Of a stretch of DNA of 64,000 bases, positions 2,841 to 58,754 are shown piece after piece. Made by a program: the position numbers and the translations under genes. The notes under the pieces were generated by a model, which saw only the letters and a list, made by a program, of their open reading frames with translations, was not told the DNA's origin and made no database searches. The stretch is from Octopus vulgaris (Eukaryota), in contig OX597837.1 in NCBI GenBank assembly GCA_951406725.2, positions 11,532,001 to 11,596,000 on the forward strand. Direction: 5' to 3'. Within the stretch, counting starts at the first letter, position 1. Every line of letters starts with the position of its first letter.

Positions 2841-2894
<54 letters not shown>

Positions 2895-2963
2895 GTAGTA
2901 AACACATAAATGTGAAACAAGGTGGAAAAAAGAGTACTCAAATACCAGGGGTAGAGTAATATG

Positions 2964-3120
2964 CTTTATTTAAAGCAGCAGAAAATTCAACAAAACCTGT
3001 TACTCTGAGTTTCACGTTCCCGTTCGTCGGACAGTTTTTGGTAGCAAAAACTGTCCGATGAACGGCAACGGGAAACTCAGAGTAACAGGTTTTGTTGAAT
3101 TTTCTGCTGCTTTAAATAAA

Positions 3121-3121
<1 letters not shown>
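2964..3121. repeat. 158-bp near-perfect palindrome holding two opposed hammerhead motifs
   Basis: Arms 2964-3040 and 3045-3121, loop GTAG; each arm reads CTGT-CCGAYGA-ACG(GNRA)CGK-GAAAC-TCAGA-GTA-ACAG. Confidence 0.85.
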
Positions 3122-3195
<74 letters not shown>

Positions 3196-3850: not shown

Positions 3851-3925
<75 letters not shown>

Positions 3926-3953
3926 TATAATAATAATAATAATGATAATAATA

Positions 3954-4624
<671 letters not shown>

Positions 4625-5099
4625 GTAATGAGCAAAATAATCATAGAACGCAAAAAAATATGAAATATATAAAAACAGGTGCTGGAATTGCTATGTGGTT
4701 AAGAAACCCGCTTGCCAAGTATTTAGTTTCTGGTTCAATCTCACAGCTTGGTCCTACCAAAGCCTTCTGAATGACTTTGGTAGATGGAAACTGTGAAAGC
4801 CCCTCGTATGTGTGTGTTTACGAATCGTTGTCTTCTCATCGCCGTTTGACAACCAGTGCAGATTTGTTTACGCACCGTAACTTAGCGGTACAGCAAAAGA
4901 GATCGAAGATATGAGTATCAGACTTTAAAGAAACATAAATACAGAAATCGATTTGTTCGAATAAACCCTTCGAAGCGGTGCCCCAGCACGGCCGCAGTCC
5001 AACAAGTAAAAACAAAGGCAAATATATGATTTCAAAAAGAACCAAGGAATTTGGTTTTATAAACAAAATTTTAGTATAGACGGTTATAAACTGAATTAG

Positions 5100-5330
5100 G
5101 ATGTTTTCGAAATGATGCCAAGATCTCTGAATCTATGATAAAGGATTCCATGTTCAATATTGTCACAGGCTTTAACAAGAACAAAGTATATTTAGTTAGT
5201 GCCCATACACCTTAGAAGATTGTTAAGGATAGTGTTATGATGCAGGAAAAGATGTCTCAGGCAACCTTACCTTGTTTTAAAAATCTAAGAGGTTATTTTC
5301 CTAAGAGCAGTTGATTATTTTCTTTCGAAC
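5100..5330 (-). pseudogene. Decayed CR1/L2-like LINE reverse transcriptase fragment
   Basis: Minus strand reads IYFVLVKACDNIEHGILYHRFRDLGIISK, a decayed IYLDFAKAFDKVDHGIL..KL..LGI.GK motif; stop codons nearby. Confidence 0.55.
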
Positions 5331-5467
5331 AATGTTTTCTACAAAATTTATGGCGGCGTAAACACAGCCACATCTAGTTGTCAGGCGAAGGTGAGGTGGG
5401 TGCAAACACAGACACAGAGACACACCCACACCCATATGTGTATCATATGAATATGACACTCACAATC

Positions 5468-5542
<75 letters not shown>

Positions 5543-5617
5543 CACACATACATACATGTTCGACTACCTGCAGTCAAATGACTGAAACAAGTAAAAGATA
5601 AAAGATAAAAGATTGTG

Positions 5618-5666
<49 letters not shown>

Positions 5667-5699
5667 ATATATATGCATATATATATATACATTATATAT

Positions 5700-5940
5700 A
5701 CCACATGATCATGTGACCGACCAGACTATCAGATGTTGTTACCATCGCTGGTCACAATGCACTTTGCATCGTTTTAGCCATCGAATGACGCAACACCGCT
5801 GATTAGGCGAGCAAACCCACATTCCGTCTTGTTCGTAATGAAGTGTTTTCCTCAAGAACACAACGCGGTGCCCGGTCTGGGAATCGAACCTACGACCTTG
5901 TATGCGTAGGGGCAAAAACCTAACCACAATGTCACGTGCA
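5700..5940 (-). mobile_element. Degenerate tRNA-derived SINE
   Basis: B box GGTTCGATTCCC on minus strand near 5880-5890; 3' part shared with 59000-59105. Confidence 0.55.
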
Positions 5941-6025
5941 TGCGTGCGTGCGTATGAATGAGAACCAGATTTAATGCACGACATTTAAACGAGACGCAAG
6001 GAAATGAAACTTCATCTCATACGTA

Positions 6026-6423
6026 TTCTCTTTTTCTCTTTTACTTGTTTCAGTCATTTGACTGCGGCCATGCTGGAGCACCGCCTTTAGTCGAGCAAAT
6101 CGACCCCGGGACTTATTCTTTTGTAAGCCCAGTACTTATTCTATCGGTCTCTTTTGCCGAACCGCTATGTGACGGGGACGTAAACACACCAGCATCGTTT
6201 GTCAAGCAATGCTAGGGGGACAAACACACTCACACACACTTATATATATATACATATATACGACAGGCTTCTTTCAGTTTCCGTCTACCAAATCCACTCA
6301 CAAGGCATTGGTCGGCCCGGGGCTATAGCAGAAGACACTTGCCCAAGATGCCACGCAGTGGGACTGGACCCGGAACCATGTGGTTGGTTAGCAAGCTACT
6401 TACCACACAGCCACTCCTGCGCC
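6026..6423 (-). mobile_element. tRNA-derived SINE, family A (full length)
   Basis: Nearly identical to 46003-46386 and to the reverse complement of 8550-8973. Confidence 0.9.
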
Positions 6424-6783
6424 TATAAATATATATGAGGTTTCATTTCCTTTAACTAAAGTGTTAGACCATAATTCGTTCTAACATTCAGCTCGTAGCT
6501 AGAGGTTGCCTTTCTAGTGTAGGCCTTGTTTACCACACAGGGTTATACGATGCAAAGCAAATTAATAATGGATTATCGCCACAAGGCATTGTACTGACTA
6601 TCATGCAACCTATGCTGTTTCTCTACTGGTGGTCCGAAGAGACATTAGTGTCTGTATTTAATATCAATTGTCAGGATTTTAAATTGGATTTCATGGTAAA
6701 GAAATAATTACGCTATTGTCGCAAAAGCTGGAAATTGTTAATAGTGTTAAGAGTAATCCGTGGTAAGAGCTTTGCATTCCAAT

Positions 6784-7092
6784 CCAATAACAAGGATGGA
6801 CTATTTATATACAAATAAATATATATATATTTATGTATATATATGTATATATATATATATGTGTATACAAATAAATATATATATATTTGTATATATATAT
6901 ATACAAATAAATATATATATATTTGTATATATACAAATAAATATATATATATTTGTATATATATATATATACAAATAAATATATATATATTTGTATATAT
7001 ATATATATATATACAAATAAATATATATATATATTTGTATATATATATATATATATACAAATAAATATAAATATATTTGTATATATATATAT
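6784..7092. repeat. Higher-order AT minisatellite with self-complementary units
   Basis: About 7 repeats of TACAAATAAATATA..TATTTGTA separated by (TA)n. Confidence 0.75.
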
Positions 7093-7327
7093 ACTCTCTT
7101 TTTACTCTTTTATTTGTTTCAGTCATTTGACTGCGGCCATGCTGGAGCACTGCCTTTAGTCAAGCAAATCGACCCCGGGACCTATTCTTTGTAAGCCCAG
7201 TACTTATTCTATCGGGCTCTTTTGCCAAACCGCTAAGTGACGGGGACGTAAACACATTTGTTAGAAACGCCCGGTCTGGGAATCGAAACCGCGAGTCCGC
7301 TGCCCTAACCACTGGGCCATTGCGCCT

Positions 7328-7330
<3 letters not shown>
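7093..7330 (-). mobile_element. Family A SINE 3' half followed by an internally deleted family C SINE head
   Basis: 7093-7256 matches the family A tail; 7267-7330 is the reverse complement of the GGAGGCGCAATGGCCCAGTGG head seen at 36649. Confidence 0.75.
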
Positions 7331-7387
<57 letters not shown>

Positions 7388-8071
7388 GACAGGCTTCTTT
7401 CAGTTTCCGTCGTATGTATGTATGTGAGTGTTTTTTTTGTGTGTGTGTGCTATACAGGTTTGTATGTATGTATGTTCGCTTCTGCTTTTGTATCAATTCT
7501 TTGTCTGAGGAAGGAGCTGGTTTCTAACAAATGTACAAAGCTTCGTCGCTGGAATGTAGATTACAAGATCGATGTCACATCTTGAACTTGAGCGAAGTCT
7601 TGTATATTTTTACCGTTCTACTTTACAGAATGGATTTGCAATGTGCGATTTCAGCTTATTGGTTTCTTTATCTAAATGCCTTGGCTTATCCAGATGGCTA
7701 CTTAGTCATTTACTCACAAAGCCACACGCTTGTAAGTATGTAAACGGGAAGAGAGAGAGGGGGAGAAGGAGAGGAGGAGAGGGAAAGAGAAAGAGGAAGA
7801 GAGAATGAGAGAACTAATATGTAAGTATTTGACATCTAAATCACACCTGATTAACAGGGAAAATGCATTAATTCAAAATCGGATTATAGAGAATTACTAC
7901 GAAACCTGCAAATTCTTCACCTAGATTAGATGTTTGCAACTGTTAACAATTTAATCTGATAACAAATTAGTTAATGAATAAATGGTGAAATTGAGAGGTT
8001 TCGATCATTAAGCGAAGAGCGACATAAGCGAGCGCGAAAAACGATTTTCTAGAATTGCATGCGTGTATATA

Positions 8072-8139
<68 letters not shown>

Positions 8140-8162
8140 GTGTGTGTGTGTGTTTTTGTGTG

Positions 8163-8256
<94 letters not shown>

Positions 8257-8549
8257 GATGTTTATAGAAACTAATGTTTCAGCTAACAGATTAATCAACC
8301 AACTGGAAGATTTTTGCTAATGAAAAAAAAAACCGTATTAGCGAATTTGGAGTCGGTTATATGAAGATGGATCAAACCCACATTTGAACGGAGATTTTCT
8401 GAAATTTACGATTTCTGTTGGATTCAATTATGATTATAGAATTAACAATTAAAATAAATATTGATTGAGAATAAGAAGAAAGAGAGAAACAGAAACAAAA
8501 TATGAATAAATTTGTAGAAAATATAGTTAAAAATTATTATAATATACAG

Positions 8550-8731
8550 GGCGCAGGAGTGGCTGTGTGGTAAGTAGCTTGCTAACCAACCACATGGTTC
8601 CGGGTTCAGTCCCACTGCGTGGCATCTTGGGCAAGTGTCTGCTACTATAGCCCCGGACCGACCAATGCCTTGTGAGTGGATTTGGTAGACGGAAACTGAA
8701 AGAAGCCCGTCGTATATATGTATATATATAT

Positions 8732-8770
<39 letters not shown>

Positions 8771-8973
8771 TCCCCCTAGCATTGCTTGACAACCGATGCT
8801 GGTGTGTTTACGTCCCCGTCACTTAGTGGTTCGGCAAAAGACACCAATAGAATAAGTACTGGGCTTACAAAGAATAAGTCCCGGGGTCGATTTGCCCGAC
8901 TAAATGCGGTGCTCCAGCATGGCCACAGTCAAAATGACTGAAACAAGTAAAAAAGTAGAGAGTAAAGAGAGTA
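8550..8973 (+). mobile_element. tRNA-derived SINE, family A (full length)
   Basis: Head GGCGCAGGAGTGGCTGTGTGGTAAG (A box), GGTTCAGTCCC (B box); internal (TG)n; tail ACAAGTAAAAAAGTAGAGAGTA. Confidence 0.9.
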
Positions 8974-8999
8974 TCAATGAATAAAGTTAATATTGGTTT

Positions 9000-9350
9000 A
9001 TAAAGTTTGGCACAAGGCCATCAGTTTTGGGGTAGGATGCGGGTGGATCACATCGACTCCAGTACTTAACTGGTACTTATTTTTTCAACCCTGATAAAAG
9101 ACAAAAGGCAAAGTTGACCTCAGTGGAATTTGAACTCCGAATAGATTGGTACAAAGCTAGCAATTTCGGGGGAATGGTTAAGTCCATCACATCGACCCCC
9201 ACAGGTCAACTGATGTTTCTTTTTATCTGCTCCGAAAGTATGAACGGCGAAGTCGACCGCGGAAAAATTTGAACTCAGAAACTAAATACGGACTAAATAC
9301 CGCTATGCATTTTGTCCGGCGTGCAAACAATTCTGTTATCTCGCCGCCCC
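9000..9350 (-). mobile_element. Degenerate family B SINE fragments
   Basis: Reverse complement of TTCTGAGTTCAAATTCCGCCGAGGTCGACTTTGCCTTTCATCC occurs twice. Confidence 0.65.
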
Positions 9351-9455
9351 CTGAATAGAGTAAGTATTGACATGTTCTTTCTAAAACCGACAACGTAAAA
9401 CTTCAACTCAACCTGCATTGAAATATCGCAGACTTGGTTCACTTATAGTAGTTTT

Positions 9456-9542
<87 letters not shown>

Positions 9543-10078
9543 AACAGTAATACCAGGATGGAATTTACCAATATTTAATACCTTGCTACGTACGTTTCCA
9601 CATATCTGATGAAGCATGCTGGAGCACCGCTTTTAGTCGAACAAATCAAGCTCGTACTTATTCTATCAGCATCTTTTGCCGAAACGATATTTTACAGGGA
9701 CGTAAACACACTAACATCGGTCGTCAAGCGCTGCGGGGGACAAAACAAACACAGACACACAAATATATATATGTGTGTATATATATATATATATAAGAGG
9801 GATGACTACGTAAGATGTTGTTATCTGTTTGGTGGGATATGAAAGGTTTAGTTGACTTTGAACTTTCAAACCGAAACCAAACGATAACAAAGGAGACCTC
9901 CTTTTAAGAGCAGCTTCTGCGGCTTAAGTCAGCGCTTGAAGAAAAACGACTATGTTTGGTTCCAAGACGAAACGTGTTCTTCCATCAGGATAATACTTTT
10001 CCAACAGAATAATACTCTTACCACAAAGCCTCATAAATGTAAAAGAATAAAAGAATAAGTGTCTGTGTATACATAAAT

Positions 10079-10112
<34 letters not shown>

Positions 10113-10117
10113 ATAAT

Positions 10118-10639
10118 ATGTGACCGCGTGTGTATTGTTGGCGATTTTCTTTCTCCTTCTTCCCTTCCTTGGACCTTTCCTTTTTCTGTTTCTGACGAAG
10201 AGTTCCGCTCGAAATGTTAAATCCTCCTTCTTTCTTTTCTTTCCTGAGCGTCCAATAACTCTATACTTGTTCCACGTCCTCGCGTTGTTGTGCTTTTCTC
10301 TTTGTGTTTTCATGTTTGGATTAACTATATATATAATATGATATAATATAATATAACATAATATAATATAATATTATATATATATATATACGTAAATAAA
10401 GAGTTGTGTATATATATATATATATTCAAAATGTGACCGCGTGTGTACCGTTGGCGATTTTTTTCCTCTGTCTTCCCTTCTCTGGATCTTTCCTTCTCCT
10501 ATGTTTCCGAAAAAGAGCTCCGCTCGAAACGTTAACCCCTCCTTCTTTCCTTCTTTCCTGAGCGTCCAATAATACTATATTTGTTCCACGTCCTCGCGTT
10601 GTTGTGTTTTCTCTTTGTGTTTACATGTTTGGATTAACT
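10118..10639 (+). mobile_element. Tandem pair of ~215-bp hammerhead-bearing elements
   Basis: Copies at 10118-10327 (CTGACGA core at 10192) and 10426-10639 (core decayed to CCGAAAA at 10507), separated by TA-rich spacer; same family as 2628. Confidence 0.75.
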
Positions 10640-10908
10640 ATATATATATATAGACCAGGACCCACAGCTTAGCTGATATAAATCCAACAATCACAAAATT
10701 TACCAAAATTACGCCAGCAGACGCCGACCAAGAATCATTACTGTATGTCACAATTATGAACTGTTCCATTATACTCTTTAAGCATATAGCATGGACTCTC
10801 TTTATTATATATAAAAAAAATTTTTTGATAAGGTTCGTTATTTCAAGAACCGAAACATGTAAAATTAAAATTTAACTAATATAGCGGCATTTTCAAACTT
10901 CATTTTTT

Positions 10909-10968
<60 letters not shown>

Positions 10969-11020
10969 TTCATATATGTATATATATATATATTCATATA
11001 TATATATAATATATATATAT

Positions 11021-11298
11021 ATTGGTAAAAACGGTAACATAACAAAAGAAAGAAAGAGACCTCAATATTATGTAAATAGAGGAAATTATATATACTTCAA
11101 TATAATATATTATAATTTAAAAACATTAGTAAGAGAATTTCTAGCCTCTCCTCCGATAAGGACATCTTTAATAGCGTTGCCCCAGTTTATGATAAGGCTT
11201 TAAAAGATAGTGGTTTTAGCGAAAAAATAAAATATACACCTGTTACTAGCCCAACAGTAAAGAAGAGGAAAAATAGAAATAGGAAGATCATCTGGTTT
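11021..11298 (+). mobile_element. Short Penelope-like fragment: inverted pLTR end fused to a stop-free RT/linker segment
   Basis: 11122-11298 encodes NISKRISSLSSDKDIFNSVAPVYDKALKDSGFSEKIKYTP...RNRKIIWF, matching ORF 21960-22652; 11021-11090 is the reverse complement of 23185-23253. Confidence 0.85.
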
Positions 11299-11725
11299 AT
11301 ATGTACGTACATAAAGAGTTATGTGTATGTGTGTATGGATGTGTGTGTGTCCAGAAGTGGCCATTAAATTTTCATACTTTTAGTTCGAGAGTATTGTTCT
11401 AAAACAAAACTAAAGTTTGAAGTAATTACGTATCTAAGTACCTGATGTTCGGTGACAGAGTAGATGTGATGTTCGCAAAGAAATGCAATCAGTTTAAAAG
11501 TTGCCTGGAGTCCGTTGATGACATATTGTTTAATTATATATTGTTCTTTCTGTCTGAAGCTCGAAAATCCATTTAACTTATAAAATGTAAATAGATATTC
11601 TCGTTTGTACTGTGTTGTTGTTTTTTAGTGTTTGTGTTATGTTGTTATTATGTGTAAATTATAGATTACAGGAAGACATAAAAATTGACTCACACACACC
11701 TGCTTTTTATCTATCTATCTATCTA

Positions 11726-11808
<83 letters not shown>

Positions 11809-12139
11809 AAGGGTAAAATTAATTATATAATTATATAATTAATAATTAATAATTTTACCATGTAGTTCGGTGTGTTAAAAGAACCATTATCGGTAAACTT
11901 AAACAAATTTTTATTTTTATTATTATGAGTATAATTATAATTAGGGTTCAGCAAAAACCTTTGCTTCACCACATACCGAAATTTAGAAATAGCAGTAATT
12001 ACCTCCGTTAGGAACATACTAGAGAATAAAATAGAGCTCGGTCACCCCTAGAATTAGCAAATAACCGAGAGTAATCGAAGTTTAGGCTTAGGCAATTATC
12101 AGATGTAAAAAATATAAATTGAATAAATAGAGTCCATTT

Positions 12140-12193
<54 letters not shown>

Positions 12194-12209
12194 GATATGT
12201 GTGTGTGTG

Positions 12210-12259
<50 letters not shown>

Positions 12260-12760
12260 TATTAATATTCATATTCATATTTCGCTAAGGCCTAGCCATA
12301 CGGATAACGGTATCAGGACTCAATACACGTATATCTTCAGAACAGAAGCATTAGTCGACGATAGGACTTTATAAGAAATCAAATCAATGACAAGAAGGCT
12401 AGAAACTAGGTAATGGACTTCATTCGCCTGCAGCTGTTTTTTGCTAAAATATATATATATTTTATATATTTTATATATATGTGTGTATACATATGTATCA
12501 ATGTGTCTATGTATGTATTTATATATGGCTGTGATCATGTGATGCCTGAGTGTACGCTAAAGTCTTAAATATATTATGTACACAACTTTACGTTAACCAC
12601 TGCTGTTTCGTGTGCCAAAAGGAAAATTTGTTTTCTGAGACACTTACCGTTACACGGTAAATATTTACGGACACAGCTATCTTTTAAAAATAAATGCGAT
12701 ACGCGCTCTTAAACAGTGTACTAACACATACATACATACATACATACATACATACATACA

Positions 12761-12856
<96 letters not shown>

Positions 12857-12857
<1 letters not shown>

Positions 12858-13030
12858 TGGTAAAAACGGTAAGATAAAAGAAAGAAAGAGCTTTCAATAT
12901 TATGTAAATAGAGGAAATTTATCAATAAATATAATATGTGACAATTATTCGGTAGCCAAGATAAAATTCTGAATTTCAGATGCCGAGGTGGAAAACCATA
13001 TCCCATCTCTTACAGGTTATCTGGTTATTT
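12857..13030 (-). mobile_element. Solo pLTR end of the Penelope family, with hammerhead motif at 12959-13022
   Basis: Homologous to 23083-23253; minus strand AGATAA-CCTGTAAG-AGATG...CATCT-GAAATTCAGAATT-TTATCT. Confidence 0.75.
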
Positions 13031-13068
13031 GGTCAGAGTATTCAAACTGAATTTATTGTGGTACCTAA

Positions 13069-13165
<97 letters not shown>

Positions 13166-13224
13166 CTTTTAGTTTCTCTCTACCAAATTTACTCTATTAC
13201 CACACAGCCACGCCTACGCCTATA

Positions 13225-13267
<43 letters not shown>

Positions 13268-13407
13268 TCTATTCAAATAAACCAATTAAATAAACATGCA
13301 CAGCGAATGTATTCTTTTGGCGCGCAGTAAAAAGACTGAGTTTTTGATGTTTCGTGCATAGCTCTCTGTCGGAAAGAAAGGGAAAAGTCACATACACACT
13401 ATATATA

Positions 13408-13697
13408 GGCGCTGGCGTAGTTTTGTGGTAAGTAGCTTGCTTACCAACCACATACTTCTAGGTTCAGTCCCACTGCGTGGCATCTTGGGCAAGTGTCTTC
13501 TAATATAACCTCGGGCTGACCAAATCCTTGTGAGTGGATTTGGTAGACGGAAACGGAAAGAAGCTTGTCCTATACATACATATATATATATGTGTGTGTG
13601 TATCTGTGTTTGTCCCCCACCGTCGCTTGACAACCGATGTTAGTGTGTTTACGTCACCCGTAACTTAACGGCTCAGCTGAACCAAATCGAAGAATAA
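13408..13697 (+). mobile_element. tRNA-derived SINE, family A (3' degenerate)
   Basis: Family A head and body. Confidence 0.8.
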
Positions 13698-14044
13698 AAG
13701 AATACACGATTGCGCTTGCATATACGAATGTATGTGATGGAAGTTTTCCATGGTCCGACAAAAACGATTCTGTAATTCCTTGTTGAACATCTTGCACAGA
13801 TTATTCGGTTGCAGGGATCGAACCTGTCTGCTGTGTCTTCTCACCACCACCCCTCCATCAAATCATATCAACGTCGCCCGAAGACTCCTACGCTGGGCCA
13901 CGTCGGGTGTCGAGGTGATCGCGGAGCAACGTAACTTAAAGCGTCTTGCTCTCGAACACAATGCCTAACCCGGACCATGAACTGAAACCGCGATGTCGGG
14001 AATGTGAGTGCAACGCTCTACCCTCTAGGCCATGCGTTTATATA

Positions 14045-14374
14045 GGAGCACTCCGTCGGTTTCGACGATGAGGGTCCCAGCTAATACGATCAACGGAACA
14101 GCTTGCTCGTGATATTAACGTGCAAGTGGCTGAGCACACCACAGACACGTGTACCCTTAACGTAGTTCTCGGGGATATTCAGCGTGACACAGAGTGTGAC
14201 AAGGCTGGCCCTTTGAAATACATGTACAAGGGAAACAGGAAGTAAGAGTGAGAGAAAGTTGTAAAGAGTACAGCAGGGATCACCAGCATCCCCTGCCGGA
14301 GCCTCGTGGAGCTTTAAGGTGTTTTCGCTCAATAAACACTCACAACGCCCGGTCTGGGAATCGAAACCTCCACA
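14045..14374 (-). mobile_element. tRNA-derived SINE, family C, with 13-bp target-site duplication
   Basis: Reverse complement of 36649-37033 with a deletion in the head; ATGCGTTTATATA at 14032-14044 and 14375-14387. Confidence 0.85.
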
Positions 14375-14760
14375 ATGCGTTTATATAATGAATGCCTAAA
14401 TAATGAATATTTAAATAATTGCGAATTTCATTTATTTCTTTCGTTAGCTTGTTTAATTTACTTTAGACATGTTTTTGAATTAATAATTAAACAGTTTTCG
14501 ATTGTATAATTGCAGAAGAGAATTCAGCAACGAAATTACATGTAGTTTAACATAAAACAGTTTGAGATGACGTATAGTGAACGTTGATCTCATGTAGACA
14601 GCCTCAGTATACACAAAACCAACACACACATATAGACATGTATATGCGTAGATCTCAATATATATATATATATATATATATGTACGTGTGTAAATAAACA
14701 GACACACAAACACATACGCACACACACACATATTTGTATATATATATGTACGTATGTCAG

Positions 14761-14813
<53 letters not shown>

Positions 14814-14866
14814 CATATATATATATATATACATATGTATGTATATATATATATATATATATGTAT

Positions 14867-14931
<65 letters not shown>

Positions 14932-14936
14932 ATATG

Positions 14937-14972
<36 letters not shown>

Positions 14973-15482
14973 ATATATATGATATATATATAGGCGCAGG
15001 AGTGGCTGTGTAGTAAGTAGCTTGCTTACGAACCACGTGGGTTTGAGGCTAATTCTGTCTCATATGACTGTCGTACCCTTCCCGGGCATCGCCGGGTACC
15101 TCTACTGATGCACGTCCACGAACACATTCATACGCAGCTTTAAGTCGAATGAATGAGAAAAAAAATGCTCAATGCATTTTGTAGAGTTCCTTTATTATTG
15201 AAACTGAAATTAAAAGTATGTCTCGTGACTACGCACACGCACACAAACACACACACACACACAACACACACACACATACACATACATATATTTTTACTCA
15301 GTAAATTGCGGCCAAGCTGGAGCGTTTCCGCTTTCATGATATGTTAAGCCATGTTATTTATATAATATAATATTCACGTCTCATTTTCCAATTTCTTCTC
15401 TCTCTGCCTCTCACACTCTCTCTCTCTCTCTCTCTGTCTATCATTCTCTCTTTCTTTCTCTGTCTCTCTCTCTGTCTATCTA

Positions 15483-15520
<38 letters not shown>

Positions 15521-16312
15521 CATTTTGTTTGTTTTGGTTTTATTTTAATTTTCTTTACTCTTCATTACATAAACAAGTAAGTCTAACTATAATAATTAGA
15601 AAATAAAAAATAAAAAAAAGGTTTAATTAATTAATTTTTATCTTATTTCGAAATATTCTTATTTTTTGGCTCTGAATTTCGTATTTAAATTTAGTTATTT
15701 GATTTTGTAATGTTTAATTCTGAGAAAGAGAGAGAGAGAGAAAGAGAGGGGCACAGAGAGACAGAGCGAGAGAGACGTAAAGATTGTGAGACAGAGGGAG
15801 TGATGTCGTGAGAGAGATAGACAGTGAGACTGAGAGAGAGAGAGAGAGGGGGAGAGATGATGTGTAACAATCATAGCGCCAACAACAATAAGAACAATAT
15901 CAATGACACCAAGCAATGACACAAATAACTACGAGAACAACAAGAACAACAACAACGACAACGACGACGACGACGATGATGAAGTCGACAACAATGGATT
16001 TCTGGTCTTAAGAATAACCAGGAATTGCGATTGTCAAAATCTTTTTGTTCCTTGCTTGTCTCCTTTCTATTCAATCTGTAAATGTAATTTTACGCCGACA
16101 CTAACTCTCTTTTTCTCTCTACTACCCTCAATTTTGCTCTCGTTTACTCTCCCTTCTCTCTGTCTCTCCTTACTTTCTTTACACCCGTTTCAAACATTTT
16201 ACTCCCTGTCACCCCAGTCTAACCCTCTACTTTACTCTATTTTGCTCTCATATACTCTCTGTTACTCTCTCTCTTTCCCTATCTCACTCTCTTTTACTTA
16301 GTCTCTTTCTCT

Positions 16313-16346
<34 letters not shown>

Positions 16347-16513
16347 CATCTCTTGCCTCGCTCTTTTCTCCCTATTCAACAGTTAACTCTCTTTGTCTTT
16401 TGAAGAATACTAAAATGTCTCGTATACACACACATACGCACACACATACATAGAAAATGCATATACACACACATACGTATACGCGCGCACACATACACAG
16501 ACGCACACGGCAA

Positions 16514-16548
<35 letters not shown>

Positions 16549-16607
16549 ATAAAATGTCAGTGGGGGTGATAGATGAATATATTTATTTAACCACTTGTCA
16601 TCCTTAG

Positions 16608-16840
16608 TGGAGGCGCGTGGTGCAGCGCTTAAGGGTGTTGGACTCATGATTGCAAGGTTATGGTTTCGATTCTTGGGCTGGATGATACGTTGCGTTCTTG
16701 AGCAAAACACTTCATTTCACATTGCTCAAGTTCACTCAGCTGGCGAAATTAAGTAATCTTGCGATATATTGGCGTCCCGTCCATGAGTGTGGAATACATG
16801 CGTCACAGAAACCGGGAAACCTGCCCTATGGCACGGGAAG
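16608..16840 (+). mobile_element. Degenerate tRNA-derived SINE with CORE-like central domain
   Basis: GGAGGCGCGTGG head, GGTTTCGATTC B box, TTCTTGAGCAAAACACTTCATTTCAC...CACTCAGCTGG body shared with 58134-58470. Confidence 0.6.
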
Positions 16841-16997
16841 GAGTTTTACATTCTAATGAGACTTAAAGTATCGTCAACTTTTCCCAAACATGAAGAATTT
16901 TACTGCAAAAATAGAAATGATAGTAATTACAAGTGTCAGATAATTTATGAGTTTGCAACAGCAGAGAGAACAGTTAGCCATAATTTATGAGGCAAAA

Positions 16998-17205
16998 AGG
17001 CGATGAGCTGGCAGAATTATTAGCCGGACAAAATGCTTAGCGGCGTTTCTTCCGACTTTACATTCTAAGTTCAAATTGCCACCGAGATCGAATTTTCCTT
17101 TGCCTTTCGAGGTTCATAAAATAAGTACCAGTAAAATACTGGGTTCGATTAATCGATCAGACGCCTCCCTACAAAATTCCAGGTAGTTTGCCTATAGCGG
17201 AAAAG
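16998..17205 (+). mobile_element. Family B SINE, degenerate monomer
   Basis: GGCGATGAGCTGGCAGAA head and AAATAAGTACCAG core. Confidence 0.65.
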
Positions 17206-18224
17206 TATAACAAAATAGTCCGCCATATTGTCGATAATTTTAGTAAGCTGTCACACTAAAATCGATAAAATGAATTCCTGTCGCACACCGTATCGATTTA
17301 ATCAACATCCCCTTCTCTTTTCCACCTCACATCCGCCACCGATAAATAGTCGCATGTCGTCTGGCCTAGAATATATCATTTAAAAAAAAAAATCAATATA
17401 CATTTCCATTTTGTATTTTTTTTTTCTTATTTTACGTTTTTAAGTTATTTTCTGTCACTTCAATGTCCAAGTGAAAGCAATTTTTTTTCCCTCTCTTTTT
17501 AAAATATTTCTTAAACCAAACTTAATCAATTCTGATTCCATTTATTGGAACGGCTCCTGTTTTATATCATTCTTCGAATATTGAAGCTAATTTATCTAAT
17601 TAAACGCTCAAAATGTCTCAAAATCATAAATTTCCTCAAAGATATGTGTCACTAAAACTCCCCAGCGTTAAAGAAAAAAAAAACTTATAATTTTCTTTTC
17701 TTTCTCTCTGATATCCTTGTTTTAATGCATTTTATTTCTGTCTTCATTTTATCTTTTTTTCTGTTTTTCTCGTCGTCTTCGTCGTTGTTGATGCCTGAAT
17801 TCAATTATACTCCAGTCACTGGTGTTGTGTGCTCTTTCGTGAAAACTGTTTGTTTCTCTCCACACCAAGTAACAATTGATTCGTGTTTGCATTATAAATC
17901 AGGCATCAGAGCTATTTCCGTAAGTGTGATTTACATTTTATGCTATGTTAAGCTATATAACGCAAAGGGTCGAGTGCCGTAAGGTGAAGCGTCAAATACA
18001 CTTGTGTCTTCAAAACAGCATTCAGCTTACGATTTTAAATGCCTGATCGTTACGTAGAAAAGTAGTTATTCTGCAGAGTCGGTCGAGTGGAGATACTCGG
18101 CCTAAAAAAGTGATACGGCTTATCTATATGTGACTATGAATATGCTTCAACACACGAATTCATATAAAGAATCTTGCAAACCAAATCCAAAAACGAAATA
18201 GGACTATATTACTTTCTATGTATA

Positions 18225-19398: not shown

Positions 19399-19460
<62 letters not shown>

Positions 19461-19716
19461 TTCGAAACGTTGAGTAGATGAAACCTTAGCGACTGAAGAA
19501 AGGTTTTTTTCTTTGTGTTAATTGTCCTGTACTCCATTTTTTTTTTTTTTTTTTTCAAAAAAATGTCCAGTTCCTTTGGTTTGTGTCTATGTTTTCGTTT
19601 CTCTTTGTGTTCGACGTCCCTTTGGTGTCCTGTACTCATATATGCGTGTATATGTACATGTAGAGGTAGGTACGTACATATATGTTTATATATATGCATA
19701 TGTTTTATTTCATTTA

Positions 19717-19812: not shown

Positions 19813-19997
19813 ACATCTGACTCACTAGAAAGAGCAGTTAGAACTCCAAGCCACTAATAGTTGCAATTCTGAAAGGGAATGAAAAATAAAAACATTTACC
19901 CTGTTTTTATTTTTCATTTTTCATTTTTCATTCCCTTTCAGAATTGCAACTATTAGTGGCTTGGAGTTTTAACTGCTCTTTCTAGTGAGTCAGATGT
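19813..19997. repeat. Long inverted repeat (foldback of a pLTR-like end)
   Basis: ACATCTGACTCACTAGAAAGAGCAG... versus ...CTGCTCTTTCTAGTGAGTCAGATGT; ~70-80 bp arms; similar to 57725-57796. Confidence 0.85.
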
Positions 19998-20310
19998 GAG
20001 GAAGGAAGGGTTGGTCAAATGTATTTAGATTATAAAATAAAAGGGGCATGAGGTTGAAAACAAAGAGGCCAAAAAACCTTAAGGGTAGTAGTTAAGATCT
20101 GAGGGTAACGAAACATAACTCAACTATGAAATTACGTTAGAAATTTAGAAAGAGATTTTAGAACCATGTAAAGGAAAAAGGATACATAAATACACTTAAA
20201 CCTTAAAAATAGGGTCCTATGATATATATGAGAAAGTTCATAAGGATTTTCCTTAGTATAATACTAAAGCAGTCATGCTAAAACCATTCAACATTGAATT
20301 TATAATTAAA

Positions 20311-21022: not shown

Positions 21023-21069
<47 letters not shown>

Positions 21070-21091
21070 ATGTTACATTACTCGGTAGTCA

Positions 21092-21154
21092 AGATAAAAC
21101 TCTGAGTTTCAGATGCCGAAGTGGAAATCCACAACACCATCTCTTCGGTTATCT
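21092..21154 (-). ncRNA. Type I hammerhead motif in the Penelope 3' pLTR
   Basis: AGATAA-CCGAAGA-GATG..GTGG(ATTT)CCAC..CATC-T-GAAAC-TCAGA-GTT-TTATCT; 6-bp stem I. Confidence 0.65.
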
Positions 21155-21342
21155 GGCTATTTGAAAACGTTATGAAAAAATACCGTTAAAAATGAAGGGA
21201 AATTACTCTGTTATAACTCTGCTTTGCCTGCGTACTTATACATCGCTCGCACTTTTCGTCATAAAAATTATATACATAAAAATACATAAAAATATATAAA
21301 AATATATAAAATCTTCTTGGGACATAACACAGAAAGCATGTT

Positions 21343-21975
21343 CTATCCGTTTTCTTTAGGGGACCAAAAACGTAACAGAAATTTAGTCACATGTGGGCAT
21401 GATCCGAAAAGCTCTGTCCTTGTATTTAGACATGTGGTAGGGTCTAAGCTGCTTTTCCAGATAAGCCATCTCTCCATGTCGCATAAACCGCACCTTCCGC
21501 TGCCGTTAGTATAGGGCTTACATCTGGCCAAAATCTTCCATTGTATGTTATAATCGACACCTTTATCTCTTAAAGACCAAATATGATTGGATAATTGTGT
21601 CGCTTTTCTTTTGTTCCAGTGCCTAAAGCTCAAAGTGTGGTTATTGAACCTGGCCTTGAAATTACCCTCTGTCAGGCCCACGTATTTCTTCGTCGAAACG
21701 GTGTCTTTAGTGGTTATAGAGTTTACGGTAGCTTCATATATGATGGTCTTGGACATGCAAGCTCCATTTAGCGGGCACAATTCTTTATTCCTGCATGAAC
21801 AGCTGTTTTCTTCTTGTGTTTTTTGTATGTTATGATTGATTATGTTTTTAAAATTGGTAGTTGAACTAAAACTAATTTTTAAATTGTGTATATTGAAGAG
21901 TTTCCTATAAGCATGGTTAACTGGAAAATGTCTATCTATCAGTGCTAGGAAATATTTACCTATATTGAAGGCCAT
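21343..21975 (-). pseudogene. Penelope linker and GIY-YIG endonuclease domain (C-terminal part of a frameshifted single ORF)
   Basis: CSCRNKELCP linker, TIIYEATV...KKYVGLTEGNFKARFNNH (GIY-YIG motif and catalytic R), CGLCDMER, CLNTRTEL..CPH. Confidence 0.9.
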
Positions 21976-22628
21976 CTCGGGTGAGTAAGGGGCGTAAACC
22001 AGATGACCTTCCTATTTCTATTATTCCTTTTCCTTACTGTTGGGCTGGTGATAGGTGTATATTTTATTTTTTCGCTAAAACCACTATCTTTTAAAGCTTT
22101 ATTATAAACTGGGGCAACGCTATTGAAGATGTCCTCATTAGATGAGAGGCTAGAAATCCTCTTACTAATATTTGTAACTAAATTTTTGAATACTATAGGG
22201 GGATGGCATGAACCTACATTAATATAACTTAGTCTATCATTGGGCTTCCTATAAGGCTTATAAATATTATTATTAAGATCTAAGGAAACGTCTAAGAAAT
22301 TGACAACCGTCAGGTTAGTGTCTATAGTTATACTAAGTCCGAAGTGTTTCATTAACTGGATAATATCCTTCCTAAAACGATCTTGTGCTGGTCCATTTGT
22401 ATTAGCTGTTAAGGCGAGGGCATCATCTTTGTAGATGGCGAAATGTACGTTAGGGAATGTCTTACCGAAGGTATCTAGGAGAAAGAGTCCAATTAGATCA
22501 CAGATGCCTGCCCCATCATATGAACCCATGCTCACATCGAAAGCGCCCTCCGTGTCGGTGTTTTTTACCCACTTTGCATTCTCACTGAAAAGTAATGTCT
22601 TTCTAGCATGGAAGATTATATCCTTATC
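21960..22628 (-). pseudogene. Penelope reverse transcriptase, 5'-truncated
   Basis: FDVSMGSYDGA, IYKDDAL (catalytic DD), NFLDVSLDL, PYRKPN, SCHPP motifs; the predicted N-terminal MDNCVAFL comes from the inverted arm, not the RT. Confidence 0.9.
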
Positions 22629-23090
22629 AAGAAAAGCGACACAATTATCCAATCATATTTGGTCTTTAAGAGATAAAGGTGTCGATTATAACATACAATG
22701 GAAGATTTTGGCCAGATGTAAGCCCTATACTAACGGCAGCGGAAGGTGCGGTTTATGCGACATGGAGAGATGGCTTATCTGGAAAAGCAGCTTAGACCCT
22801 ACCACATGTCTAAATACAAGGACAGAGCTTTTCGGATCATGCCCACATGTGACTAAATTTCTGTTACGTTTTTGGTCCCCTAAAGAAAACGGATAGAACA
22901 TGCTTTCTGTGTTATGTCCCAAGAAGATTTTATATATTTTTATATATTTTTATATATTTTTATGTATTTTTATATAATTTTTATGACGAAAAGTGCGAGC
23001 GATGTATAAGTACGCAGGCAAAGCAGAGTTATAACAGAGTAATTTCCCTTCATTTTTAACGGTATTTTTTCATAACGTTTTCAAATAGCC

Positions 23091-23153
23091 AGATAACCGA
23101 AGAGATGGTGTTGTGGATTTCCACTTCGGCATCTGAAACTCAGAGTTTTATCT
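23091..23153 (+). ncRNA. Type I hammerhead motif in the inverted pLTR copy
   Basis: Exact reverse complement of 21092-21154. Confidence 0.65.
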
Positions 23154-23249
23154 TGACTACCGAGTAATGTAACATATTGTATAGATAAATTTCCTCTATT
23201 TACATAATATTGAGGTCTCTTTCTTTCTTTTGTTATCTTACCGTTTTAT

Positions 23250-23302
<53 letters not shown>

Positions 23303-33130: not shown

Positions 33131-33218
33131 ATGCAGCTGAGGATAGCTCTGCATTTAAATTGACGTAATGATTATATCGTTCGATTAAATGGAGACGCTT
33201 GAAACGATCGTACTGCAT
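33131..33218 (+). ncRNA. Type I hammerhead ribozyme motif
   Basis: ATGCAG-CTGAGGA-long stem II (AGC/GCT, CATTTA/TAAATG)-GAAAC-GATC-GTA-CTGCAT; inside a ~210-bp island (33043-33250) between (TA)n tracts. Confidence 0.8.
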
Positions 33219-33245
33219 TACCTCTCAATATCCTGTTGCTTATAT

Positions 33246-34740: not shown

Positions 34741-35163
34741 TCACCTTGATCACCTTGACCGACCAGTCCGTCAGGCGTCCATTTGGTTGGCGCGGGTGGT
34801 CCTGTCCAACCTTCCCTTGAGCACATCCCTTATGCCATTGAACGCCTTCCATCCGGTCCTTACTCTCCGTGAGATCTCCTTTTTGATATCCCGGCACATA
34901 TTTACTTCCTGTCCCAAGTAGACATATTCTCTCACCTCCTCTATTTCATCACTGCCGATCACCATTCGACCTGTTGGTACATTGTCTGACCGCATGAACT
35001 TTGTTTTCATGCGGTTCATCTTGAGACCTACTGCAGAACTTTTGATGTCGAGCTCCGTCAGCATGGTCTGAAGCTGATCCATGTTTTCAGTTATGAGTAC
35101 GATGTCGTCAGCGAAACGAAGGTGAGTGAGGAGCTCGCCATTGATGTTGACACCACCTTGCTC

Positions 35164-35165
<2 letters not shown>
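34741..35165 (-). mobile_element. RTE-clade LINE fragment (RT core joined to 3' end) in (TA)n
   Basis: GVNINGELLTHLRFADDIVL...GLKMNRMKTKFM...YVYLGQ...EISRRVRTGWKAF; tail CAAGGTGATCAAGGTGA. Confidence 0.9.
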
Positions 35166-35204
<39 letters not shown>

Positions 35205-35602
35205 AAGAATACGGCTCTTTCTCTATTGGCAAGAAATCTTGAAATACAACTGAATAATGATATACATACATACATACATACATGTGTACATACATACATG
35301 CTGATGTGTTTACGTCCCCCGTAACTTAGCGGTTCGGCATAAGAGACGGATAGAATAAGTCCAGAGGTCGATTTCTTCGACTAAAACCCTTTAAGGCCGT
35401 ATTCCAGCATGGCTGCAACCAAATGAACCAGAAAGGTAAAAAAAATATAAGAATATATATATATACATATATATATAACTATGTAAATTTTGGGGGGTAA
35501 AAATTTAGAATAATTTATTACCAGTGGTTCCAAGCGTAAAATCATAAGACAAGATTTTTATTTATAAATATGTATAAATCCTTATACACTCTTATATATA
35601 TT

Positions 35603-37772: not shown

Positions 37773-39524
37773 GGTAATAAGAAAATGGAGGAGATCAATA
37801 GGTGGTATTCATCAACTTTTAGACATTATATTATGTCTATTTGTTTATTTTTTGAAAACAAAGGGTCTTCAAAATGTGCGTGTTTAATAAATGTTTACAT
37901 TTAGGTGCAAGGTTAGGCATTTTTAGAGGAGGAAATAATCAATTAAATCGACCTCTGTACGTGATTGGTACTTTATTTTATAAAACCAGAAACCAGAAAG
38001 GATAAGAGGCAGAGATGACTTCGATGGGATTTGAACTTGGAACCTCCGACACTTTAATAGTTCTGCCAATCTAGTACATTCAAAATATATTTTACGAAAG
38101 ACACAACTGCCTCTGTCGCTTGATATTTTATGTTGATACTTTTAATTTTGTGTGTATGCATATTTGAGTGTCTGTTTGTGTGTGTGTATGTATGTGTGTG
38201 TACATATATACATACATATATATATATAATATAAATAATATATATGTGCATATATACATACATACAGGTACATACCTACGTATATATTTACATACACATG
38301 CATATTTGGGTACAGGACGTCAAAACAAAACGTGAACAACATGAAAAACAAAAACATGGAAAACGAACTTTTTCGAACAACGAATGAAACAAATAGAGAA
38401 ACGTGACATCCAACAGAAAGAACGCACACTTCATCAGTTGTCCACTGTTTTATCTACTCCGCGTATATATTTATATATATATATATATATTATAAACTAT
38501 GACAATATTTCAAGTTAATGAAATTTTGTTTGAATGCTTATATTTTATTATATTTATATTTTTTCTTGGTTACTTCATAAGTCTATTGTCTTGGGAATAA
38601 AACTATATTTCATAAATAATTTTATGTATAAGCGAGATGCGAAAGCTTTCGAGAGAAACATTTTAACTTCTATTTTTTTTCAATTCAGAACTGCTGCAAC
38701 TTAAGTATTTTTTATGCTTTCAAATATGAACTAATAAAGAAAATATCTAAATAAATAATCTAGAGCCATTATTGTGTCTATTCACCATATTTAAAGAAGT
38801 GACGTTTTTATTTTACACATTTTAAATTGACTATTCCTCTTTAACGTCGAGAATCAAATTGAATCAAATGATAAAATTTATTGTGTCATATATATTTTTT
38901 TTTACCATAAAAGTCTTTATATATTATCTTACGAATAAATATTAGAAACCTCAAAAGATGAATGCGATTCCTAGATAGTGCGAAGATAATTCACATGACT
39001 ACGTAAGGAAATTTATAAAGGTGAACATAGAATAATGGTAGGCAATTAATTTTGAATTCTCGTTTAAATACGATTTCAAATCTACATCGCTCATTTTAAA
39101 AGATTTACCTATCCTTAATTTATTCACTTTAAAGCATTAATATGGTCTCTCCTGTCGAAGACGAGGAATGAGTGATCAGCATTTTGCCGACTGACCGGCA
39201 CAAATGATTTGTTTCTAGTGATCAAATGTATGTGCCGCATATCAGCTCCCTCTCTCCATCAAATCGACGTTGTCTGAACAGGTGCACGGTGCCCCACACA
39301 TCAGGTATCGAAATAATCGCGGAGCAACATAATATAAATTATTTTGCTCAAGAACACAACGCACTACCCGGACTAGGAATTGAAACCACGATCTCGCCAT
39401 CGTGAATGCAACACCCTGATCATTAGACTATGCGTCCGAATGTAAGTGTTATGAATCATATTTGTAGATATGGATGTATGTTTGAGAAGTTCGCTTCGTA
39501 ACCAAGTGGTTTCGACTACAGTTT

Positions 39525-40832: not shown

Positions 40833-40964
40833 AGTTCAGCAAAAATTTAGATTCAAATGAATATGGTACTTAATTTAGATGCACCAGAATTCTGTATGGT
40901 GTTAACCATAAAAATCCGTGGGGTGATTATAATCAAAATAAGCAACAAGAATGACTCCGGTAAT

Positions 40965-41052
40965 TTGGTACGATCGTTTCGTACTACATCATTTTATTAA
41001 ATGTTGTAAGTATTACAACAGTTTTAAAATGCTGAGCACTCATCAGCACCAA
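40965..41052 (-). ncRNA. Type I hammerhead motif with long stem II
   Basis: TTGGTG-CTGATGA-GTGCT..ATTTTA..TGTTGTAA(TAC)TTACAACA..TAAAAT..AGTAC-GAAAC-GATC-GTA-CCAA; stem I imperfect. Confidence 0.65.
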
Positions 41053-46658: not shown

Positions 46659-46950
46659 CTTGATCACCTTGACTGACCAGTCCGTCGGGCGTCCATTTGA
46701 CACTGCTGGTCACAGCACGCTGTCCACTCCTCTCTGGATCGCGCCTTTCTCATCCACGTGATCCCAATCATTCTCCTGAAATCGTCACTCCACCGTCGTG
46801 GAGGCCTTCCGGATGGTCGTTTCCACTCGCGCAGGTACCACTCGACAACTGCGCGGGTCCACCGATTATCGGTGAGCCGGGCGACGTGTCCAGCCCATCT
46901 AAACTTGCTGCGTATTTTTACTCTGCGATGACATCCCTCACGCTCTGGTT
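46655..46950 (-). mobile_element. RTE-clade LINE 3' end
   Basis: KFRWAGHVARLTDNRWTRAVVEWYLREWKRPSGRP; same CAAGGTGATCAAGGTGA-(TA)n tail as the 34741 copy. Confidence 0.88.
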
Positions 46951-47336
46951 TGATAATAAAAATAAAATTTTAATTAAACATGGCGGGACTCAACTGTGCG
47001 CTCCACGTCTTTTCTCTTTTTTTACATGATTTCTGTGTTTGGATAACCAGCGGTTTGTTTCTGTATCGTTTAATGAAAGTTACAAAATTTAAATTAAATG
47101 TGATGGCTCATTATTTACAAAAATATTACAGTATGAATTACAAACTGTTGAACAGCTTAGACAAGATAATCATTATTCTAGATTTGTTATTACAAAATCC
47201 ATAGAATTACTGAGCGTCATTAAAGATATTTCCTTGTTTTCTTTCGTTCTTTATCTATGTTTTAAAATCATTCTACTTTCCCCTCGTGTTTAAGAGAACA
47301 AGTCATTTTCATTTTAATGATCAAAATCTCACTCAC

Positions 47337-51248: not shown

Positions 51249-51358
51249 TAATCACTACAATTGTTTCGACTCATTTCACATCGATTCTTCACGGGTGGGG
51301 CACTGAACAGCTGGTTTAGGAGTATCCGTCGGTGTAGATGTGTCTCTTCAGGTGATTA
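51249..51358 (-). ncRNA. Type I hammerhead ribozyme motif
   Basis: TAATCAC-CTGAAGA-GAC...GTC-GAAAC-AATT-GTA-GTGATTA; perfect 7-bp stem I, palindromic stem III ACAATTGT. Confidence 0.82.
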
Positions 51359-56874: not shown

Positions 56875-56908
<34 letters not shown>

Positions 56909-56910
56909 TG

Positions 56911-56941
<31 letters not shown>

Positions 56942-57632
56942 GTATGTATGTATGTATGTATGTATAAACGTTATGCTCGTACATCACAACGAATATCTCT
57001 TCTAAGAGGTTAAACCGGTATATAATTACATACTTAGAAACAATTAACTATGTCCTTTTGTATTTATTTGCTCCAGAGTGTTTGATAATGTTTTGTTTTT
57101 AAATGATTTCAATGAAAAAAAATGTATTATGTCATATGCAATCTGGCAATAATCTCATTGTAATAATGTCATTTGAATATGATATGATATTTTAGAACAT
57201 GTAATATTATATTTTCGAAATAATTTGATTGCGACAATTTGTTTGTGATTAGATATTCTTAATTTTTACAATGGTTTGATTGTAATCACAGACTTTAGAA
57301 TTAGTTAACTGCAGTGTAAAAGGAATGACGTATTTCTTCTTTTCATTGTTATTTTTCCTTATAAGGCGGTGAGCTAGGATAAAAGTGACTGCGATGGACA
57401 AAATGTTTAACGGCAGTTCGTCTTTCTTTAAGTTCTGAGTTCAAATTCTTCCGAAGTTGACTTCGTCTTTTATTCTTTCAGGGTCAAGCACTGAGATCGA
57501 TAGAATTGACTTCCATCTCCCCCGAAATTTGGGAATTAGGTATTAGAGAGAACGATTGAAAGAGAGAGAGAGAGAGAGAGAGAGATGAGACACGTGTTAT
57601 TTGTCTCTAAATAATTTGTTAATTGTTATGGC

Positions 57633-57705
57633 ACGGTTACTGATGAAGATTCGCCTAGCAAATTATTTTATTTGCTGAAGAAATCTGAAACCTAGGTATA
57701 ACCGT
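57633..57705 (+). ncRNA. Type I hammerhead ribozyme motif (best-formed in the window)
   Basis: ACGGTTA-CTGATGA-AGATT..TAGCAAAT(TATTTT)ATTTGCTG..AATCT-GAAAC-CTAG-GTA-TAACCGT; predicted cut after 57698. Confidence 0.88.
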
Positions 57706-57920
57706 AAAAAATAACAAGGTAAAAGTTTTTATTTTTCATTCCCTTCGAAAATTGCTCTTAAATGTGGTTTTGGTCGTTTTGACTGCTTCTTCTAGCGTTT
57801 ATATATGTATATAATCTGAAATTACTAAGGCTACAACCGCTATCAATCAACATTACCAAAACGCACATATCTGAGTGTCATTGGTCGACCAACACGGTGG
57901 AATGTAGCTTCTTTTGGAAA

Positions 57921-58032
57921 TTATCCCCTGATGAAATATTTAATTAACCAGTTTCAATATTAAATTTTTTAATTAATCTAATCTAATTTCTCTAATTGAA
58001 TTAATTGGATATGGAAACGGCTGTAAGGATAA
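57921..58032 (+). ncRNA. Type I hammerhead ribozyme motif
   Basis: TTATCCC-CTGATGA-A-ATATTTAATTAA...TTAATTGGATAT-G-GAAAC-GGCT-GTA-AGGATAA; core-proximal pairs mismatched. Confidence 0.7.
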
Positions 58033-58133
58033 GAATTTCATATTATATTGATTTGAATATCTTTGAATAAACTGGTTCTATGCGTCGTCAATTTCTTCAT
58101 TTTCTTCTTTTTCTCATATACATATATATATAT

Positions 58134-58754
<621 letters not shown>

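Follow-up and report, generated by a model that had tools for sequence, protein, structure and literature searches.

The window (the whole 64-kb stretch of Octopus vulgaris DNA analyzed here; GC content, 27 to 40%) is rich in microsatellites and short interspersed repeats and carries two type I hammerhead motifs on its plus strand, HH1 (57633-57705) and HH2 (57921-58032), with predicted cuts after A57698 and A58025, respectively. HH1 has a stem I in which seven of seven positions form Watson-Crick pairs (57633-57639/57699-57705), core boxes CTGATGA (57640-57646) and GAAA (57687-57690), and a 40-nt helix II (57647-57686) made up of a 5-bp base, bulges, and an upper hairpin. Helix III of HH1 is the palindrome ACCTAGGT at 57690-57697, and the core is closed by three helices of 7, at least 5, and 2 bp. 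HH2 has a stem I (57921-57927/58026-58032) with six of seven positions paired, the core-adjacent position being a C57927·A58026 mismatch. Its core boxes CTGATGA and GAAA are found at 57928-57934 and 58014-58017, and its 79-nt helix II contains 12 pairs (57936-57947/58001-58012), including two U-G pairs, with A57935 and G58013 unpaired at the base. Helix III of HH2, ACGGCTGT at 58017-58024, is palindromic if a G-U pair is allowed. As isolated monomer hairpins, the helices III of HH1 and HH2 were calculated at +2.0 and +2.4 kcal/mol.

A relaxed type I descriptor returned four motifs on both strands of the 64 kb (cuts at +33212, −51256, +57698, and +58025), all four with an 8-nt palindromic helix III, compared to 0.02 motifs per window and none with a palindrome in 200 block-wise dinucleotide shuffles. 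With one core change allowed, nine motifs were found versus 0.18 expected (100 shuffles). Both HH1 and HH2 contain the core CUGANGA ... GAAA ... UH in type I order. The preliminary description of this DNA, which had placed two co-oriented hammerheads here with cuts at 57698 and 58025, 327 nt apart, was thus borne out by the descriptor set against shuffles; however, it omitted that stem III of a single copy amounts to only 2 bp plus a tetraloop, 8 bp requiring a second copy, and that in HH2 the stem I position next to the core is unpaired. No Rfam family reached its gathering score over the window, and no hammerhead family was among the 19 matches at E ≤ 10 in 56900-58500, so that the hammerhead call draws on the descriptor and on how the copies vary. 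The missing Rfam match would fit chance resemblance in AT-rich DNA, as would the fact that the core words by themselves occur randomly: 40 of 40 metagenome loci matching the core plus the HH1 palindrome had no stem I (at best four of six pairs) and no BLAST similarity to the region, and all were discarded as chance matches. The excess over shuffles, together with changes in other copies that preserve pairing and with a second palindrome found there, refutes this reading and leaves it a negligible probability.

These changes were seen in contigs of four of the 24 public sequencing runs listed, which carry organism labels A to D and have no recorded library type; 891 to 2156 contigs per run fit when aligned to 57590-58125 at 80% likeness. 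They were also seen in one contig of run X18 (record 12). This contig, which belongs to the repeat family around HH1 (family A), carries two pairs changed on both sides (57638/57700 and 57648/57685) and one broken pair (57704), and the helix III of other family A copies carries a different palindrome. Position 57647 is A in HH1 versus G in 84 to 94% of family A depth in the four runs. In the family around HH2 (family B), the other copies restore stem I and two C-G pairs of helix II: position 58026, A in HH2, is G in 93 to 94% of the depth in all four runs (30, 62, 67, and 57 contigs), which provides a partner for C57927, and positions 57940-57941, T in HH2, are C in most copies, resulting in C-G where HH2 has two U-G pairs. 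HH2 is a decayed copy that differs from the rest of its family in the stem I pair next to the core.

Two repeat families and their junction

HH1 lies within the family A module (57590-57798, plus strand), which contig depth and loose contig ends identified as the 5′-truncated end of a high-copy repeat. On its left, family A extends to at least 57590, where it adjoins a (GA)n tract (57561-57590). Summed depth over 57590-57805 was 292 to 17,911 in run X1 and up to 243,553 in X4, summed contig depth not being copy number. Past 57796/57798, other family A copies continue into a different sequence starting with GTAAAA (43, 87, 106, and 66 contigs per run among the rows listed), in place of which the window has a short TA-rich tract (57799-57808). 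This tract, the likely target site, ends the module, its first (TA)3 being 101 nt past the HH1 cut. Other family A copies also contain joints between opposite strands.

The TA-rich tract is followed by a probable decayed inverted arm of family B on the minus strand (57809-57856), which matches 58002-58048, i.e., the 3′ half of HH2 and sequence beyond, and has no intact core. It is the best inverted repeat in 56900-58500, with 34 of 48 columns identical to the reverse complement, and has a G at the place matching 58026, the same as family B. Its alignment score was equalled by 3 of 2000 and 9 of 1000 shuffles under two scoring schemes, a significance that is only moderate because the arm was picked after looking. 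The forward arm (∼57876-58117, plus strand) contains HH2 and a tail ending at (TA)n, as delimited by contig depth, joints, and TRF, which placed an AT tract at 58116-58134. Summed depth of family B over 57914-58075 was 96 to 707 in X1 and up to 17,639 in X4. Other family B copies showed opposite-strand joints at 57918/57973, 57924/57984, and 57986/58043, and a further joint in X20 (57923/58090) places an inverted tail before a copy; an inverted tail was also found before a family A copy in X20. One X20 contig, in which sequence starting at the predicted cut 57699 follows an inverted tail, was discounted as a single case with a boundary that may be off by a few letters. SINE-like common repeats, each with many relatives in the window, flank the hammerhead pair at 57360-57485 and 58136-58470.

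Local alignment of the modules around HH1 and HH2 gave a score of 12, which was equalled by 960 of 2000 shuffles. By this comparison, the A and B modules are unrelated beyond the hammerhead core; the same shuffles and the existence of two separate repeat families agree with the earlier characterization of the motifs as unrelated.

The junction between A and B was bridged by a single contig, from X1 (57772-58013), without differences and at a depth of 4.1, which is 40- to 4000-fold below the summed depth on either side in that run; X1 may be the source sample of the window and hence does not count as independent. Runs X2, X4, and X7 had no cover at 57824-57841 and provide no evidence either way on the junction. 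Since other A copies continue differently and the junction is held by one contig, A, spacer, and B do not form a recurring unit. Co-orientation and short distance are the only points in favor of a composite that recurs as a single element with a different hammerhead at each end. The divergence of other A copies at 57796/57798, the single bridging contig at single-locus depth in X1, and the TA tract and probable inverted B arm that separate the two modules largely refute such an element, which we regard as extremely unlikely.

A relative of the 3′ part of family A occurs at 19815-19997 (75% identical over 19825-19985) as an inverted pair beside (TA)n. The plus arm of this pair runs on for 300 nt (19815-20305) in AT-rich sequence without a Pfam match. 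A possible return of this arm to an HH1-like motif, as in a tandem unit of ∼400 nt, was rejected as not significant (300 of 1000 shuffles), and none was found within 310 nt.

Folding and compatibility of the pair

In nearest-neighbor folding, which leaves out the hammerhead core and tertiary contacts, stems I and II of HH1 had mean pair probabilities of 0.77 and 0.82 in the context 57600-58060 versus 0.24 and 0.27 in 57600-58120. For HH2, values in five longer contexts were 0.00 to 0.18 for stem I and at most 0.01 for helix II; folded alone, its six stem I pairs reached 0.63 to 0.84, and helix II 0.02. The inverted arm was considered as a blocker of HH2 and rejected, as it pairs with it (0.39 per nt) only if the RNA starts at 57800, other AU-rich stretches pairing in longer contexts.

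Dimer compatibility was judged from duplex energies and pair counts. Two like copies would form 8 bp in helix III, with homo-duplex energies of −11.4 (HH1) and −9.7 kcal/mol (HH2) versus −1.7 kcal/mol for the hetero-duplex, in which four of eight positions pair. Crossed stems I of HH1 and HH2 paired at three of seven positions (all G-U) and at one of seven. These estimates predict that HH1 and HH2 cannot form a double hammerhead together. HH1 is predicted to be the better bench candidate of the pair, as a homodimer, and could be used to test the type with long helix II and 2-bp helix III for monomer, homodimer, or trans cleavage. It had been proposed as the best candidate in the window for a wet-lab test, which is reasonable, but the motif at 51256 on the minus strand is equally clean in stem I; the assay suggested with it, a single T7 transcript of 57600-58060, tests mainly monomer activity and may give a false negative.

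The hypothetical piece from cut to cut (57699-58025, plus strand) combines the 3′ part of A with the TA tract and with family B sequence, inverted as well as forward. It has 31% GC and a minimum free energy of −56.8 kcal/mol (z = −0.58), and 33 of 100 shuffles folded as well. A circle of this piece would be without a ribozyme because the 5′ strand of HH2 and the 3′ strand of HH1 pair at one of seven positions. TRF found no tandem repeat at the pair, and none of 15 candidate frames for a host gene had a Pfam family over the cut-off. Among the 24 runs listed, no RNA-labelled run covered the stretch. Contigs of the putatively RNA runs X15, X16, X18, and X20, whose organism labels are B and E but not A, contained pieces of both families with no cover over 57806-57859; no joint of 58025 to 57699 was listed in them, which, given this coverage gap, is no evidence either way, and contigs cannot show RNA ends or strand.

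In the reading suggested by the preliminary description, cleavage of a plus-strand transcript at both motifs would free an RNA of 327 nt; its ends would be 5′-OH and 2′,3′-cyclic phosphate, which RtcB could join. In favor of this reading are two intact cores in the same orientation, spacing and GC content within those of animal retrozymes as given in PMC7229834 (150 to 450 bp, <45 to 50% GC), the ability of invertebrate type I motifs to cleave as monomers, and family-like sequence in contigs of the four putatively RNA runs, which suggests that trans partners may exist. On the other hand, a heterodimer is predicted to be impossible, HH2 combines C·A at the core-adjacent stem I position and A·G at the helix II base with near-zero helix probabilities in context, the 327-nt piece is no more structured than shuffles, and neither a host gene (15 frames) nor a transcript through the locus was identified among the runs listed. 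Excision of a 327-nt RNA is therefore poorly supported and, in our judgment, very unlikely. Highly improbable, too, is a variant in which each motif would be activated in trans by RNAs of its own family, so that read-through transcripts would be cleaved at both sites to give a chimeric RNA of 327 nt, which RtcB could circularize. If this were true, accidental pairs among densely spaced hammerheads (four to nine per 64 kb) would be a background source of ribozyme-less circles, and such circles would be raw material for new Penelope-mobilized elements.

Close spacing as such calls for little explanation. A co-oriented pair within 330 nt arose in 3%, 7.5%, and 17% of random layouts with 4, 6, and 9 motifs in 64 kb, and insertion beside older copies of Penelope-like elements (PLEs), as described in PMC6765202, would raise the frequency of pairs above that of random layouts. 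As chance pairs arise in 3 to 17% of layouts and PLEs are reported to prefer microsatellites, the hotspot postulated in the preliminary description is not needed. Its proposal of adjacent insertions at TA-rich sites found support in the presence of two families, each ending in (TA)n ∼100 nt past its cut.

Probable relation to Penelope-like elements

The window contains a Penelope-like fragment at 21060-23280, with a reverse transcriptase (RT)-like frame (21963-22652) and a GIY-YIG-like frame (21346-22011), both on the minus strand and frameshifted, and an inverted 5′-truncated plus arm (22630-23255). Both arms terminate in hammerhead-like motifs, (TA)n is present on both sides, and a 75-nt tail is found on one arm only; further pieces of the element are located at 11020-11298 and 12813-13031. 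The GIY-YIG-like frame matched Pfam at an E value of 0.0049, below the cut-off, and none of its longer homologues scored; seven homologues of the RT-like frame had no Pfam family, and a PDB search gave no match. Atlas neighbors were those with HTH_animal (26 to 28%), RVT_1 (11%), and GIY-YIG (37%). A miniature two-armed insertion of the same design lies between (TA)n at 2892-3121, with two inverted hammerhead-like arms, one of them with a 71-nt tail.

Families A and B are dispersed in many divergent copies, with (TA)n at 57799 and 58116, and the two share inverted arms, tails, and (TA)n at their ends with the PLE of the window at 21 to 23 kb. The distance from cut to TA fell into a long class (101 nt for HH1, 89 to 97 nt for HH2, and 105 and 108 nt for the tailed arms) and a short class (30 to 38 nt, three tailless motifs); motif 51256, 54 nt from CA, fits neither. 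Marks described for PLE insertions are 5′ truncation, an inverted 5′-truncated copy, a tail at one end, and a bias for microsatellites (Craig et al. 2021, PMC8557442), and PLEs are reported to favor both microsatellites and existing PLE copies (PMC8557442, PMC6765202). A short palindromic helix III with dimer cleavage has been described for PLE hammerheads (PMC4209133, PMC6765202). No coding remnant of an RT or endonuclease was found by Pfam under an E value of 0.2 in six frames of 57590-58125 and three frames of 19990-20306, and A and B did not resemble the 3′ UTR of the PLE in the window (118 of 300 and 193 of 300 shuffles scored as well), so that the assignment of both families to PLEs draws on anatomy and analogy.

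The locus juxtaposes the ends of two unrelated high-copy repeats, each with its own hammerhead ∼100 nt before (TA)n. We consider it likely that these ends are 5′-truncated relics of two PLE families or of their non-autonomous derivatives, and we predict that they do not function together. Reverse transcription would have begun at the 3′ end of each element in a TA microsatellite, and its early stop would have left the terminal repeat with the hammerhead; B probably left the forward arm and tail plus the short inverted arm at 57809-57856, and whichever module came second would have landed in the TA flank of its neighbor. Going by the literature, the hammerhead of the parent element would cut as a double hammerhead with a same-family copy in a tandem transcript. 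As neither motif has a same-family partner in cis, HH1 would be limited to weak cleavage, by the monomer or in trans with A-family RNA, and HH2 would probably not cleave. For PLE hammerheads with this architecture, slow cleavage as dimers has been described (PMC4209133, PMC6765202, PMC6155905), whereas efficient monomer cleavage is reported for canonical invertebrate type I motifs (coral, 0.8/min; mussel, 0.1/min; PMC7229834). Since HH1 and HH2 are built like these coral and mussel motifs, with helices I and II complete and a helix III of 2 bp, the requirement for a dimer is not certain.

Alternatively, with the layout unchanged, one or both modules might be a truncated monomer of a non-coding tandem retrozyme that relied on the enzymes of PLEs to move. 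This would agree with the lack of coding remnants near either module (Pfam, six frames), with the extension of other A copies past 57798 into sequence absent here, and with full helices I and II like those of retrozyme hammerheads described in PMC7229834; moreover, it has been proposed that retrozymes derive from PLEs as non-autonomous elements (Li, Clavereau and Pollet 2026, 10.64898/2026.07.22.740005). However, there is no tandem unit at the locus, no joint that goes back was present among the joints listed (15 of 26, plus 4), and the A-like arm at 20 kb does not return to HH1-like sequence within the next 310 nt. We regard a retrozyme parent as less likely than not; it would alter what A and B are called and leave the judgment on the 327-nt piece as it is.

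HH1 and HH2 resemble the hammerheads of PLE terminal repeats (pLTRs) reported by Cervera and de la Peña (2014, PMC4209133) in type I order, core, palindromic helix III, and long helix II, as well as in the occurrence of many divergent families per genome, mostly as single truncated copies, with predicted cleavage as dimers of low activity. In contrast to helices I of 4 to 5 bp described there, helix I is 7 bp here, and helix II is 40 to 79 nt; the core-adjacent pair of helix II is A-U in HH1 versus G-C in that report. The close pairs given in PMC4209133 (100 to 700 bp apart) are on opposite strands, while the pair here is co-oriented and comes from two families, and, unlike the elements described there, has no open reading frame linked to it at this locus. 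The insertion anatomy matches that described in PMC8557442 with respect to 5′ truncation, the inverted truncated arm, the one-sided tail, and microsatellite targets, but the tail is ∼70 nt here versus 30 to 40 bp. Animal non-LTR retrozymes (Cervera and de la Peña 2020, PMC7229834; Li, Clavereau and Pollet 2026) likewise have two co-oriented type I hammerheads ∼300 nt apart in non-coding sequence of low GC, and the 327-nt piece with its 31% GC lies inside their size and GC range (150 to 450 nt, GC <50%). As described in these reports, however, retrozymes repeat one sequence in tandem, so that the excised circle restores the ribozyme, whereas the motifs here are unrelated and not in tandem; and the retrozyme monomer is highly self-paired, which the 327-nt piece is not, nor can its junction form stem I. 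In newt satellite 2 and ASBVd (PMC6155905, PMC6765202), double hammerheads similarly have a helix III of 2 bp in the monomer and 8 bp between copies, but their cleavage is reported to need two compatible copies, and HH1 and HH2 are incompatible. The pair is an example of why co-oriented hammerheads at retrozyme-like spacing are not enough and compatibility of helices I and III is also required. HH1 and HH2 are further copies of a known kind of retroelement hammerhead, of little consequence as they stand. A literature search, with subscription papers and supplements outside its scope, found no paper on cephalopod hammerheads; published genome lists may include such species.

Other hammerhead-like motifs and reverse transcriptase fragments

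Four motifs at two loci (21091-21175, minus; 23070-23154, plus; 2994-3040, minus; and 3045-3091, plus) have a CCGANGA core (C for U4) and a 9-nt helix III, ACTCAGAGT, in common despite different stems. The shared CCGANGA may be a core variant that recurs within one PLE clade and not a product of decay. Further type I motifs with palindromic helix III are located at 33131-33219 (plus), 51249-51358 (minus), and ∼40900-40990 (minus); those at 33 and 41 kb are related and share ACGATCGT. A repeat family with reversed hammerhead boxes (GAAAC ... GTA before CTGANGA), starting at (TA)n, was found at 19460-19505 and ∼38430-38480 (minus). LINE-type reverse transcriptase fragments are present at 34774-35325 and 46667-46969 (minus), the first of which matched RVT_1 in Pfam with an E value of 7e-09.
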